From the IMG/VR virus record IMGVR_UViG_2778261269_000005, positions 1 through 37,915 of that record: 37,915 bases of DNA; one strand, given 5' to 3'. A program made the translations under genes and the position numbers. The DNA comes from a virus (Duplodnaviria; Heunggongvirae; Uroviricota; Caudoviricetes). Position 1 is the stretch's first letter. Every line of letters starts with the position of its first letter. The notes under the pieces were generated by a model. The model ran no database searches. It had not been told where the DNA came from and worked only from the letters and a program-made list of their open reading frames with translations. Positions 18,406 to 33,396 of this stretch are shown piece after piece.

Positions 18406-18789
18406 TTAGCGCTTCAACTGAAAGTGAGGCCCGTCTTTCAGCGTTTTCCAGTCCCCGCCCCATTCGATGGCGATTCCCAACTCTGCGCCAGCCTGCTTAA
18501 ATGCCTGCGCGATTTTCTCGTACAGAGGCCAGTCCCATGACACCTGGCTGCCAACGTAGGCAACAACATCCACCGCATCACCGGTCAGGTGGCGGCTGTT
18601 CATGGTCTGGCTTTTCCCTTCCGCGACCAGCTGCTTCTGGCGATACTTACTGCGCAGGCCTTCCGTAATACCGAAATCAACCTCCGTCAGCTCCAGCGCA
18701 CGGCGAACAACAGCAACCAGCTGTGGTTTGACGCCCTCCAGATTTTTCTCACTTCGACGACTGAATCTGAATTTACCGGGCATACTCAC
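18406..18789 (-). CDS. endolysin, peptidase M15 family (L-alanyl-D-glutamate peptidase type)
   Basis: 127-aa ORF with SRHLTGDAVDV and GIAIEWGGDW, typical of zinc M15 cell-wall peptidases; ATGA overlap with the preceding membrane protein. Confidence 0.75.
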   Translation of the reverse strand: MSMPGKFRFSRRSEKNLEGVKPQLVAVVRRALELTEVDFGITEGLRSKYRQKQLVAEGKSQTMNSRHLTGDAVDVVAYVGSQVSWDWPLYEKIAQAFKQAGAELGIAIEWGGDWKTLKDGPHFQLKR

Positions 18790-19073
18790 CTCCGTAATGA
18801 AAGGATTTTTGATACGTTCCCGCGTGCTCGTATCACCAGCACGCAGAACACCAGGTTAATCAGGACGACCAGCCAGTTACCGGGTGGAAAGCGACCACAC
18901 AGATAACAAAGCGGCGCAAAGGCATAAAGCAGCATCAGCAGCCAGGCCAGCCACGACATCAGCGGTTTATGTCTCGACTCACCACGACGATAAAAAAAGA
19001 GCGTCAGCACGATAACCGTGCTTAACACCACATTCAGTAATCCGGGAAGGTTACTTAACATTACCGCCTCCAC
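18786..19073 (-). CDS. small membrane protein of the lysis cassette (holin/antiholin-like)
   Basis: 95-aa ORF with 3 predicted hydrophobic helices, between holin and endolysin. Confidence 0.55.
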   Translation of the reverse strand: MEAVMLSNLPGLLNVVLSTVIVLTLFFYRRGESRHKPLMSWLAWLLMLLYAFAPLCYLCGRFPPGNWLVVLINLVFCVLVIRARGNVSKILSLRR

Positions 19074-19440
19074 CCCGCAGACGGGAGAACAGCCCGGATA
19101 CCAGCGATGCGATATCCTGCTGGTGGATGAATGAGAGAATCTTCACCGACACCACCGATACCAGTACCGCGCAAAGCGCGTCGAGAGATGTGCTGTGAAG
19201 ATTCAGTTTTTCAACCAGGTAAGACGCCATCACATCCGCCCCCAGCACGCCAACAATGAACGACACCAGAAAATGCGCTGCCACACGCCAGACAGAAATC
19301 TGCTGTGGTATCGTGGCCACAAACAGCGCCCCTGCGAATGCACCAAACACAATCCCGAAATCCGTTCCGGTAAACAGCCCGAATACTGTCGCCCCGCCGA
19401 GCGCCGCAGCCGTGCCGGAACCGGACAAGGGTTCAGACAT
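19051..19440 (-). CDS. putative holin
   Basis: 129-aa ORF with several Gly/Ala/Val-rich hydrophobic helices, AGGAGA RBS, first gene of the lysis cassette. Confidence 0.55.
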   Translation of the reverse strand: MSEPLSGSGTAAALGGATVFGLFTGTDFGIVFGAFAGALFVATIPQQISVWRVAAHFLVSFIVGVLGADVMASYLVEKLNLHSTSLDALCAVLVSVVSVKILSFIHQQDIASLVSGLFSRLRGGGGNVK

Positions 19441-19460: not shown

Positions 19461-19481
19461 AAAAAGGGCCTCTGTCGGCCC
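19461..19481 (-). terminator. terminator-like hairpin just upstream of the holin RBS
   Basis: GGGCC-N6-GGCCC stem-loop followed on the minus strand by a T-run. Confidence 0.45.
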
Positions 19482-19912
19482 GTAAAAAAACACCCCGTCA
19501 AAGGCACCCGCAGATACCTTTTGTGTGGCGCTATCTGATGTGATGTGCGCCAGGCGTGGCGCGGATATGAAAAAGGCCCGCCGCAGCGAGCCATATGCAT
19601 AGGTAAAAAAAATGCCCACACATAAGGCGGGCTAACGCAATGTAATGATGAAACAGAGTTTACTTGTATAGATGTTATAAGAATGCGCCGTCAGCCTGCT
19701 GTGCAAACTGGCAAATCGTAGGCCCGGAAACAGACAACGACGCATTCTGGTATCACCTCATCCCTGCAACATGCAGGGATGACTACAAAAAAAGCACTGA
19801 AACTGTAGGCGGTCAGGTCTACAGAATGAAAAACAACAAATCCACCTGCCAGGTCTGTTCTTCACGAAAATTCGCCAGTGCTGATAATAAAGCTATGACT
19901 CATCAGTTTTAC

Positions 19913-19989
19913 TGGAGAGCGGGTGGCGAGAATCGAACCCACATCATCAGCCTGGAAAGCTGAGGTAATAGCCATTATACGATACCCGC
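19913..19989 (-). tRNA. diverged tRNA-Gly(UCC)-like gene, possibly a pseudo-tRNA
   Basis: Minus strand reads GCGGGTATCGTATAATGGCTATTACCTCAGCTTTCCAGGCTGATGATGTGGGTTCGATTCTCGCCACCCGCTCTCCA: cloverleaf with GGTTCGATTC T-loop and UCC anticodon, but a 7-66 mismatch, wobbles in the T-stem and no clean CCA. Confidence 0.55.
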
Positions 19990-20206
19990 ATACTGTACTG
20001 GCTTCCGGAATCACACGAATTACCAGGAAAGCCAGCACTGGTCCTTCAGACGATAGTAACGCCCCTGTGAACACAAAAATAACCGTCTTCCGGACCAGTC
20101 AGAATACTAACGACAGTTTTTCAGACATCAAAAATATATTTGGTGTTCAGTTTTAAATATGTGTATACATCTGTATCAGAAATATACAACTTATATCATC
20201 ACTGAA

Positions 20207-21253
20207 TTAAAAATCTTTCGTGATTTCTCTGACCGTCTGATTAAAACGTTCCTCTTCCAGTTCCACGCCAATCGCCCTGCGTCCCAGCGACAGTGCCGCT
20301 TTTATTGTCGACCCCGACCCCATAAAAAAATCTGCGACCAAATCGCCTGGACGGCTGCTGGCAGTAATTATCTGACGCAACATATCCGCCGGTTTTTCAC
20401 AGGGATGTTTACCCGGATAATACTGCACGGGCTTGTGCGTCCAGACATCCGTATACGGAACGGCAGCCGATACGGAAAAATAACGCCGCAGGGATTTGTA
20501 CTCATCCAGCAGGCTGGCATATTGCCGGTTCAGTTCGCTGTATGTGCTGACCAGCTGGTGGGGTGGCTGCTCCAGTTCACCGCGCTGGTGTTTTTCTGCC
20601 GCAACACGCGCAAACAACGCCTGCAGTTTACTGTAATCGGCCTCATTCGGTAACTGCCACTGACTGGTACCAAACCAGTGCGAAGCCATGTTTTTCTTTC
20701 CGGTGGCTTCAGCTATCTGTTTTGACGTTATCCCCAGTAATTCACGCGCATCACGGAAGTAAGAAATCAGCGGAGCCATCACGTGCTGTTTAAGCTCGCG
20801 CCCCTTTGCTGCATAGCCGTCATTTTTTGGCTGGTATGGCCCCTGATAATGTTCAGCAAACAGAATGCGCTCTGTTGCCGGGAAATATGCCCGTAAACTT
20901 TCCTTATTGCACCCGTTCCAGCGTCCGGACGGCTTCGCCCAGATAATGTGGTTCAACACATTAAAACGTTCACGCATCATGAGTTCGATATCTGATGCCA
21001 GTCGATGGCCACAGAACAGGTAAAGACTTCCGGCAGGCTTCAGTACCCGCCAGAACTGTGCAAGACACTGGTCCAGCCATTTCAGGTAATCATCGTCCCC
21101 CTTCCACTGGTTATCCCAGCCCTCGGGCTTCACTTTAAAGTATGGCGGGTCTGTGACTATCAAATCGACAGAGTTTTCCGGTAAGGTCAGGATAAATTCC
21201 AGGCAATCAGCGTTGACTAACTCACAGCTGGATATTTTTACAGTATTAGCCAT
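20207..21253 (-). CDS. DNA methyltransferase, beta-class N6-adenine/N4-cytosine (DPPY) family
   Basis: 348-aa ORF; N-terminal LIVTDPPYF (motif IV) and C-terminal DFFMGSGST (motif I). Confidence 0.85.
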   Translation of the reverse strand: MANTVKISSCELVNADCLEFILTLPENSVDLIVTDPPYFKVKPEGWDNQWKGDDDYLKWLDQCLAQFWRVLKPAGSLYLFCGHRLASDIELMMRERFNVLNHIIWAKPSGRWNGCNKESLRAYFPATERILFAEHYQGPYQPKNDGYAAKGRELKQHVMAPLISYFRDARELLGITSKQIAEATGKKNMASHWFGTSQWQLPNEADYSKLQALFARVAAEKHQRGELEQPPHQLVSTYSELNRQYASLLDEYKSLRRYFSVSAAVPYTDVWTHKPVQYYPGKHPCEKPADMLRQIITASSRPGDLVADFFMGSGSTIKAALSLGRRAIGVELEEERFNQTVREITKDF

Positions 21254-22742: not shown

Positions 22743-23414
22743 CTATGAAAATGCCGCCTTTTGTTTTGAACGTGTTCCCTCCACCAACAATAAAGCTTCA
22801 CCATCCAGCCGATGAAAAATGTGTTTCATTGCAACCCAGTGACCAGTAAATGTCTTGGACCAGTTTTTGGTTGTTACTCCCACCAGTAACGCCAGTTCCT
22901 GGTATTCGTAACCTTCCCCACCAAAAAGCTCAGCTTTTACCGCCTGCGCCGCCAACCAGATCAACGTCTTCAGGCGCACCAGAGTTTTTCCTGCAATTTT
23001 TCTGGTACCGGATTGAGCATTAAATTCAGTCCACGCCCACTGCGTTATCGCGATCTGATGCTCCCAGCAAATGCTACCGCTGTAACACCACAGCAGCCAG
23101 GCTTTATGATGTTCTTCAAGAGACAGAACGGCGCGTCGCCATGATGATGTCGAAAACTCAACCGGACTGACCAGGGCAATTGATGAACCTTTCGCCAGCG
23201 ATTGCTTTCCCGGGATCGGTGGATTATCCAGCGTTACTATTTTTCCAGTGACCTTATCGCGGTACCGGATTTTTTTACGTCTGTAACGCCCTGTATTGAA
23301 CATGGCATTCTCCTGCCAGGCTTCAAGCTGACCTTTTGTTGCTCCACTCAAATCAGCGGTGGCGATCATGAGCTGCTCACGCACAAACTGTAAATACTGG
23401 TTATTCATGCGCAC
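22743..23414 (-). CDS. putative late-gene antiterminator (Q-like, QuuQ/YdfT-type)
   Basis: 223-aa ORF between rusA and the pR'-like promoter/terminator; synteny with quuQ-ydfU of Qin. Family not verified. Confidence 0.45.
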   Translation of the reverse strand: MRMNNQYLQFVREQLMIATADLSGATKGQLEAWQENAMFNTGRYRRKKIRYRDKVTGKIVTLDNPPIPGKQSLAKGSSIALVSPVEFSTSSWRRAVLSLEEHHKAWLLWCYSGSICWEHQIAITQWAWTEFNAQSGTRKIAGKTLVRLKTLIWLAAQAVKAELFGGEGYEYQELALLVGVTTKNWSKTFTGHWVAMKHIFHRLDGEALLLVEGTRSKQKAAFS

Positions 23415-33338: not shown

Positions 33339-33396
33339 TTTCTGGTGACGTTTGGCGGTATCAGTTTTACTCCGTGGCTGCTCTGCCGCCCTTTTT
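33339..33396 (+). ncRNA. dicF: DicF small regulatory RNA
   Basis: TTTCTGGTGACGTTTGGCGGTATCAGTTTTACTCCGTGGCTGCTCTGCCGCCCTTTTT matches remembered DicF nearly base-for-base, with 3' hairpin and U-run, upstream of dicB. Confidence 0.85.

Follow-up and report, generated by a model that had tools for sequence, protein, structure and literature searches.

What is a lone glycine tRNA gene doing in the late region of a lambdoid phage, and is it still a working tRNA? The gene in question lies at 19913..19989 on the minus strand of a 37,915-nucleotide (nt) virus sequence (Caudoviricetes; IMG/VR record IMGVR_UViG_2778261269_000005, positions 1 to 37,915), the whole of which is called the window here. The first-pass annotation, made from the sequence without database searches, had left the choice between a phage-carried tRNA and a decaying copy. 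Our analysis indicates that both descriptions apply: the element is, with near certainty, a phage-borne tRNA-Gly gene of a lambdoid tRNA-array family found downstream of the antiterminator gene Q, and we put at roughly 60% the probability that the window copy is an eroding member of this family under relaxed selection, at best a weak contributor to decoding, as suggested by its stepwise degeneration, its lost partner and its near-neutral rate of change.

The 77-nt tRNA-like sequence runs from 19989 to 19913 and reads GCGGGUAUCGUAUAAUGGCUAUUACCUCAGCUUUCCAGGCUGAUGAUGUGGGUUCGAUUCUCGCCACCCGCUCUCCA, with the tRNA body from G1 to U73 at 19989..19918 followed by CUCCA. ARAGORN calls a tRNA-Gly with anticodon tcc at 19917..19989, the only tRNA call in the 37.9-kb window, and Rfam RF00005 matches 19989..19918 over the full model (positions 1-71) with 46.8 bits, compared to a gathering score of 29, and an E-value of 4.6e-07 in a search of the whole window. 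The feature is of an already known kind, and its exact sequence is already annotated in RefSeq: an identical sequence in NZ_AP042701.1 is a tRNA-Gly according to the Prokaryotic Genome Annotation Pipeline (PGAP), without a pseudogene flag. The surrounding 1.1 kb has 13 full-length matches, all in E. coli chromosomes and all with the order methyltransferase, tRNA-Gly, holin in their RefSeq annotation. The best match over the 1.1 kb (99.6% identity) has an identical tRNA, and the prophage that carries it also encodes Q, RusA, terminase and portal proteins. Thus, the first-pass description of a 77-nt minus-strand tRNA-Gly-like sequence with a UCC anticodon and a canonical T-loop (UUCGAUU) is recovered to the nucleotide at 19989..19913, and scoring with tRNA predictors, which that annotation had proposed as a way of exposing a pseudogene, yielded a tRNA from both ARAGORN and Rfam.

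Conservation analysis placed the gene in a family of phage tRNA arrays. A megablast search with the tRNA alone, which cannot seed on host glyT because of the difference at U6, detected the phage-type (U6) Gly in 336 of 5,426 complete E. coli genomes (~6%), and an exact-pattern scan of IMG/VR detected it in more than 119 viral contigs; only 16 of the 336 genomes carry a copy that is at least 95% identical to the window's. The consensus phage Gly is identical to glyT except for pair 6:67, which is changed from C-G to U-A, and ends in a clean CCA. According to ARAGORN calls on the IMG/VR contigs, the arrays are modular with a period of 79 nt, and Gly is always the last gene: Thr(UGU)-Gly is found at 79 loci, Met(CAU)-Lys(UUU)-Thr-Gly at 12 and a solo consensus-type Gly at 11, and in further layouts Lys or Arg(UCU) occupies the Thr slot. 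Annotated arrays of this family (Thr-Gly, Arg-Gly or Met-Lys-Thr-Gly) are present in phages SerU-LTIIb, phi467, JLK-2012, vB_EcoM-606R7, vB_EcoS-689R5 and PhiR47_1 and in several hundred E. coli genomes. The commonest sequence in the Thr slot (46 copies) is identical to K-12 thrU, and, given the near-identity of Gly to glyT, the array is therefore host-derived, with thrU and glyT brought next to each other. Nothing specific on this lambdoid tRNA-Gly came up in a search of the literature.

Among 74 distinct consensus-type loci, the nucleotide diversity of Gly is 0.0097, versus 0.41-0.55 in the unalignable flanks. Gly is under strong constraint across the family as a whole and is the most strongly conserved member of the array. 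The window copy carries the family signature, i.e., U6-A67 and a late-operon site between Q/methyltransferase and the holin, but not the one to three upstream tRNA genes at the 79-nt period, in place of which only a 44-nt relic is found.

Compared to the phage consensus, the window's Gly has the substitutions C32U, A38G, U66C, C50U and C62U as well as a 2-nt insertion. The first-pass annotation had called it nearly identical to a host tRNA-Gly, which is a fair summary of 68 identical positions out of 75 aligned with K-12 glyT (seven substitutions plus the 2-nt insertion); it had also correctly singled out the mismatch at the base of the acceptor stem, the wobble pairs in the T-stem and the TCTCCA end. 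The mismatch is A7·C66 and stems from U66C, and the wobbles U50·G64 and G52·U62 stem from C50U and C62U. At the 3′ end, a CT insertion before the CCA shifts the register, so that U73 is followed by CUCCA instead of CCA, positions 74-76 read CUC and the encoded CCA lies 2 nt out of register. In E. coli tRNA genes, the CCA at 74-76 is genomically encoded as a rule. The 7-nt anticodon loop retains UCC, U33 and A37, with U/G instead of C/A at positions 32/38. A cloverleaf with all four stems is possible if one mismatch and two G·U pairs are allowed, but the nearest-neighbor model does not favor it, and the minimum-energy structure of the window sequence is a different fold (z = -1.0 versus shuffled sequences).

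These changes did not arise in the window alone. A variant clade, represented by ten fetched copies (nine IMG/VR contigs, plus RefSeq loci, plus the window) and present in ~16 complete genomes at different chromosomal positions, shares U32, G38, C66 with the A7·C66 mismatch, the CT insertion, the out-of-register CCA and a solo Gly. Among all fetched copies, it is the only clade with an out-of-register CCA on a glyT-type body. Intermediates exist, and the window copy is at the tip of a stepwise degenerative series. The series leads from the consensus with G38 only (L145) via copies with G38 and C66 and a clean CCA (L137, L144) to a basal variant with an intact T-stem (L109, L147), then to the basal variant with C50U (L016, L039, L050, L075, L124) and finally, with a further C62U, to the window, L001, L014 and L026. 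Along it, the Rfam score decreases from 64.9 bits for glyT and 65.6 for the consensus to 61.6 upon addition of G38, 54.3 in the basal variant, 51.6 with U50 and 46.8 in the window, and the predicted T-stem pairing probability goes from 0.99 to 0.93, ~0.8 and, in the window, 0.10. Two clade members carry damaging lesions of their own: in L035 (IMG/VR; 45.6 bits), G53A destroys the G53-C61 pair, and L148:707-777 (E. coli NS-NP030), which PGAP still labels tRNA-Gly, lacks 1 nt of the 3′ acceptor strand.

The partner of Gly in the window has decayed much further. Alignment to intact Thr-Gly arrays shows that 19993..20036 (minus strand) is a 44-nt, internally deleted relic of the tRNA in the Thr(UGU) slot. 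What survives of it is GCTGGCT, the 5′ acceptor strand, and GATTCCGGAAGCCAGT-ACAG, the 3′ strand of T-arm and acceptor; the two still pair into an acceptor/T-arm minihelix (-16.6 kcal/mol). The end of the leader and the 5′ acceptor strand, CTGAAGGACCAGT and GCTGGCTT in the window, match CTGAGGAACCAGT and GCCGACTT of intact arrays, and the 3′ part GATTCCGGAAGCCAGT-ACAG-TAT stands in exact register ahead of G1 of Gly. As a free local alignment the relic is weak (p ~0.02); it is the positional agreement, in exact homologous register, that makes the assignment convincing. A second tRNA upstream was detected neither by ARAGORN in the window nor by a permissive Rfam scan of 19850..20210 with E-values up to 10, and the snoRNA-like Rfam matches in that interval were discarded as chance matches in AT-rich DNA.

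Further upstream, a leader hairpin of the tRNA-array transcript at 20038..20098 (minus strand) adopts the same fold in both haplotypes and has its homologue in intact arrays, namely their GGTTCC...GGAACC leader hairpin. Compensatory double changes are seen at 4 of its 18 pairs in six distinct sequences (the haplotypes and a sister lineage), and it could serve as a processing or attenuation signal. A sigma-70-like promoter candidate, TTGATG-16 nt-TAGTAT at 20104..20131 (minus strand), aligns column for column with promoter-like elements of intact arrays and may drive the array. It has 8/12 matches and scores below the threshold of a generic scan, whereas the elements of intact arrays, which are conserved across the family, also with a 16-nt spacer (TTGAAA-16-TAATAT/TATTAT or TTGCGA-16-TATCAT), have 9-10/12.

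The sister lineage (L031, L053, L058, L066, L101) allowed us to compare the rates of change, as it shares with the window the promoter type, the leader hairpin and the Thr relic but combines them with a perfect consensus Gly and a clean CCA. The 240 nt upstream that window and sister have in common show 14.2% divergence, or ~7% per branch, and under neutrality ~5.3 changes would be expected in Gly. The window copy has 5/75 changes from the ancestral consensus plus the indel, and the sister copy has 0/75 (Poisson P(0 | 5.3) = 0.005 under neutrality). Counted as events, the contrast is 6 to 0 (one-sided p = 0.016) in this relative-rate test, in which the counts are small and the branch lengths are assumed to be equal. 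Gly has changed at close to the neutral rate in the window, whereas in the sister it has stayed frozen, and the strong purifying selection that characterizes the family is not seen in the window lineage. Since the sister keeps a perfect Gly beside the same relic, it was not the loss of the Thr partner that released Gly from selection; something did, however, release it in the window's lineage.

In the model that we favor, the array of the window lineage is eroding: its Thr gene has been reduced to the 44-nt relic, its promoter hexamers are poorer matches to the consensus, and its Gly has gained C32U, A38G and U66C, which leaves A7·C66, the 2-nt insertion that shifts the CCA, as well as C50U and C62U, which weaken the T-stem. 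The gene would presumably still be transcribed and processed, with a function that is reduced or absent. E. coli glycyl-tRNA synthetase (GlyRS) recognizes U73, G1-C72, C2-G71, G3-C70, C35 and C36 as identity elements, and because all six are present in the window's Gly, the gene may still give rise to some chargeable tRNA. E. coli matures precursors that lack CCA with RNase BN and the CCA-adding enzyme, and this CCA-less route, with an RNase BN cut after U73 followed by CCA addition, would be needed here.

The main rival is a fully functional phage tRNA-Gly(UCC), in which the changes represent tolerated drift and which, after CCA-less maturation, supplements the decoding of GGA/GGG. We consider it less likely than erosion, and a number of observations speak for it. 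Besides the glycine identity elements, the universal U8, A14, G18G19 and the T-loop are intact as read from the sequence, both T-stem changes still pair as G·U, and all three predictors treat the sequence as a tRNA, with an Rfam score well above threshold and no pseudogene flag from PGAP. By analogy with T4 tRNAs, which tolerate similar lesions, no single lesion of the window copy is known to be lethal. Functional T4-type tRNAs have comparable or weaker stems: in the same folding model, a T4-type tRNA-Gly has its cloverleaf at -16.1 versus -18.9 kcal/mol and a T-stem probability of 0.5-0.6, and the T4-type tRNA-Pro has no encoded CCA. After calibration against the T4-type tRNA-Gly, we dropped folding energy as decisive proof of non-function. 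G38 appears to be compatible with function because it occurs in at least 19 otherwise intact phage arrays. Moreover, GGA/GGG codons are ~1.7-fold enriched in the genes of the window, and the ~16 genomes with the clade at different chromosomal positions indicate that the carrier phage is spreading. Recombination or gene conversion through lambdoid mosaicism could explain part of the rate asymmetry, and within the clade the diversity of the tRNA (0.016) is not above that of the flanks (0.025-0.108), in what is a young clade with recombination blocks in the flanks.

On the other side of the balance stand the near-neutral change of the window's Gly against a frozen sister, the damaging lesions in clade members (G53A and the acceptor-strand deletion), a cloverleaf that is not the predicted ground state with a T-stem probability of 0.10, the weaker promoter match and the lost partner tRNA, and the fact that this is the only clade on a glyT-type body without an in-register CCA. 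As each lesion would be survivable alone, what speaks for erosion is that the lesions have accumulated, together with the outcome of the rate test.

What the intact arrays do bears on both of these readings. In the open reading frames (ORFs) of the window, GGA and GGG occur at 13.6 and 18.1 per thousand codons, compared to 8.1-9.4 and 9.0-10.6 in a K-12 codon sample analyzed in the same way. Together they account for 44% of the Gly codons in the window versus 26% in the K-12 sample (odds ratio 2.2, p = 7.5e-13). The first-pass annotation had proposed to compare the use of GGA in late genes, and an enrichment of GGA is indeed found, across the window ORFs rather than in late genes alone. ACA, AGA and ATA are ~2-fold higher in the window than in the K-12 sample and match the other array slots. 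Codon supplementation is therefore a plausible role of the array family. Intact arrays would be transcribed from their own sigma-70-type promoter with a structured leader and also within the Q-antiterminated late transcript; the tRNAs would then be excised by host RNase P and 3′-end processing enzymes and would add decoding capacity for GGA/GGG, ACA, AGA and ATA, codons that are about twice as common in the phage as in the host.

The arrays also contain tRNAs with a thrU body and a shifted anticodon. In L040 and L061, 79 nt upstream of Gly, a "Lys(UUU)" gene (6 copies) corresponds to thrU with A26G and G35U as its only changes, and in the "Arg(UCU)" of SerU-LTIIb (L002:1122-1194) a thrU-like body carries G35C. 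PARIS and PrrC-type nucleases attack tRNA-Lys(UUU), and the thrU-bodied Lys tRNA could be a counter-defence against them. The Thr slot has decayed independently in another lineage: in the IMG/VR contigs L006 and L018, a full-length Thr gene with mutations in its D-arm goes uncalled by ARAGORN and stands beside a perfect consensus Gly, so that Thr is seen to fail before Gly in more than one lineage. For the Thr member, a role in counter-defence is documented in addition to decoding, as it can replace a host tRNA destroyed by the nuclease of a rival prophage: in lambda-infected cells, P2 Old cuts off the anticodon arm of host tRNA-ThrU(UGU) and so kills them, and rescue comes from the Thr(UGU) tRNA of lambdoid phage 21 (Govande et al. 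2025, PMC12445682). As a separate observation, the anticodon stem of array Thr(UGU) genes in L003:2965-3040, L006 and L007 has mismatches in its 3′ strand (…AATCATCCGG… versus …AATCAGTAGG… in thrU), and these AATCATCCGG-type copies match the signature of a shortened stem and altered CNG reported for P2 Old-resistant phage tRNA-Thr.

Such a role in counter-defence leads to a further alternative for Gly, which we regard as improbable: A38G, C32U and the shifted CCA could be adaptive, conferring either resistance to an unidentified toxin directed at tRNA-Gly or a retuned decoding of GGA/GGG, in which case the window gene would be a counter-defence tRNA and not a decaying one. U32, G38 and the altered 3′ end would then have been selected to make the tRNA-Gly a poor substrate for the toxin, e.g., an anticodon-loop nuclease, a toxSAS-type CCA-end pyrophosphokinase or a GNAT acetyltransferase such as AtaT2, and translation of GGA/GGG would be sustained during infection. 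Published work (PMC10264068, PMC12445682, PMC11555353) documents phage tRNAs that evade tRNA-targeting defences through changes in the anticodon arm; tRNA-Gly is a target of several toxins, of which FaRel2 targets exactly Gly and Thr (PMC11559606).

The distribution of G38 is in line with this idea. On this anticodon arm, A38G is found in at least 19 viral contigs (L145 and L127-L144 from IMG/VR, and L150, an E. albertii contig), across several array types (Asn-x-Gly, Met-Arg-Gly, Thr-Gly) and acceptor-stem lineages, indicating that it is recurrent. It is also phage-specific: in a scan of 185,579 species-representative genomes for the exact pattern, which species with other arm sequences would not match, the E. 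albertii prophage contig L150 was the sole hit, and this rules out G38 as a native host state for this anticodon arm. In structure prediction, C32 together with G38 zips the anticodon loop (pairing probability 1.0 for 32:38 and 0.81 for 33:37) and leaves the cloverleaf 5.4 kcal/mol above the minimum, a gap that is predicted to be halved to 2.7 kcal/mol by the C32U of the window clade.

Against an escape from a toxin stands that the literature searched contained no toxin acting on the anticodon loop of tRNA-Gly(UCC), and an eLife paper on anticodon-loop escape makes no mention of Gly or of temperate phages. In the consensus phage Gly, which is far more common than any other form, the anticodon arm does not differ from that of glyT, and the window-specific U50 and U62 lie in the T-stem and look degenerative. 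We considered two known effectors and rejected both. The P2 Old cleavage motif (CNG at 28-30 and 40-42, plus A37; PMC12445682) is unchanged in every phage Gly copy including the window's, which thus bears no signature of Old resistance, and the main text of that paper does not list Gly as an Old substrate. Likewise, an acceptor-stem escape from a FaRel2-type toxin does not apply, as all of the determinants G1-C72, C2-G71, G4-C69 and G5-C68 are retained (compared to PMC11559606). Comparison of the Old motif and the FaRel2 determinants therefore revealed no evidence for counter-defence by Gly.

Less probable still is a role other than decoding, in which the tRNA fold, the minihelix relic and the leader hairpin are kept as an RNase P/RNase E processing site or as a recombination linker. 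In the first case the late transcript would be cut between the methyltransferase and lysis messages, and in the second the downstream modules would be swapped. In its favor are the compensatory changes that maintain the leader hairpin and the acceptor/T-arm minihelix into which the relic still folds; moreover, the downstream flanks of family members are unrelated while the tRNA is common to all, which indicates mosaic boundaries at the 3′ end of the tRNA. However, an effect as a recombination linker would be a by-product and not a selected function, and since the sister lineage combines this arrangement with a perfect tRNA, nothing requires the degenerate form.

Finally, the notion that the sequence is no gene at all can be set aside as already refuted, be it as a chance cloverleaf (the Rfam match is full-length at 46.8 bits, and more than 100 homologous phage copies occupy the same position), as a glyT attachment-site fragment (attachment sites carry only the 3′ part of a tRNA, whereas this one is full-length and sits amid the late operon, a long way from the ends of the prophage) or as part of a coding sequence (the ORFs 19862..20074 on the minus strand and 19923..20156 and 19664..19963 on the plus strand overlap it, and RefSeq annotates no coding sequence there).

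The window's tRNA gene can be compared with several known systems. With E. coli glyT, which is part of the thrU-tyrU-glyT-thrT operon, the window's Gly shares the anticodon, D-arm, anticodon stem, variable loop, T-loop and glycine identity elements; it differs by U6-A67, U32, G38, A7·C66, the two T-stem wobbles and the 2-nt insertion, and it resides in a prophage late operon, whereas glyT lies upstream of tufB. With the intact lambdoid arrays (Thr-Gly, Arg-Gly, Met-Lys-Thr-Gly), it shares the position, U6-A67, homologous promoter and leader sequences and the terminal place of Gly, but in the window Gly is solo beside a Thr relic, has five further substitutions and lacks an in-register CCA. Shiga toxin (Stx) phages such as 933W reportedly carry the tRNA genes ileZ-argN-argO downstream of Q and upstream of the lysis genes, as Plunkett and colleagues are said to have described in 1999. 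This is the same placement for tRNAs that read host-rare codons, although the tRNA species are others and no toxin genes follow the tRNA in the window; some of the G38-type relatives are Met-Arg(UCU)-Gly arrays in the style of Stx phages.

T4 likewise encodes a tRNA-Gly(UCC) with a weak T-stem, and the T4 set includes members without an encoded CCA. T4 tRNAs without an encoded CCA are matured by host enzymes. In contrast to the window's, the T4 tRNA-Gly combines a C32/A38 loop with an acceptor stem that pairs completely and an in-register CCA, and it belongs to the cluster of eight tRNAs of a lytic phage. The tRNA-Thr(UGU) of phage 21 is the type of tRNA that usually precedes Gly and shows that lambdoid tRNAs can act in counter-defence (PMC12445682), but in the window this Thr is destroyed.

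The genes around the tRNA were assigned by Pfam and define its place in the late operon; all lie on the minus strand. The antiterminator Q, which defines the late operon that contains the tRNA, is encoded at 22743..23414 (PF06323, E = 2.1e-90). An N6/N4 DNA methyltransferase at 20207..21253 (PF01555, E = 8.6e-45; also in the RefSeq annotation of a near-identical prophage) lies directly upstream of the tRNA region. The next gene downstream is a first holin at 19051..19440 (PF16931 and RefSeq annotation), followed by a second holin at 18786..19073 and an M15 endolysin at 18406..18789. The position between lysis cassette and methyltransferase, and downstream of Q, is therefore as the first-pass annotation had placed it. 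A consensus scan detected three intrinsic-terminator-like hairpins (19632..19614, 19592..19575 and 19481..19466, i.e., within 19466..19632, minus strand) in the spacer between the tRNA and the start of the holin, and they are kept across the variant clade. In a lysogen, these hairpins would stop promoter-driven, Q-independent transcripts, and Q-modified polymerase would read through them. The tRNA-to-holin spacer of 476 nt is gene-free in the window; relatives carry extra genes (morons) there.

Apart from the tRNA, the window encodes a full-length DicF small RNA at 33340..33391 on the plus strand (Rfam RF00039, 75 bits versus a threshold of 48), which fits a Qin/Rac-type lambdoid prophage immunity region. 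Other Rfam matches in related viral contigs, without connection to the tRNA, are two pairs of C4 antisense RNA and isrK in L035:10288-11132 and STnc100 in L128:258-435, each on the minus strand.

Taken at face value, a tRNA gene at this site has little significance, as phage tRNAs downstream of Q are textbook knowledge. Should G38/U32 and the altered 3′ end indeed be escape changes, they would indicate that E. coli has an unknown defence directed at tRNA-Gly. The array to which the gene belongs is modular, host-derived and common in E. coli prophages, and the window catches a rare lineage in which such an array is falling apart, and thus offers a natural experiment on how much damage a phage tRNA tolerates.

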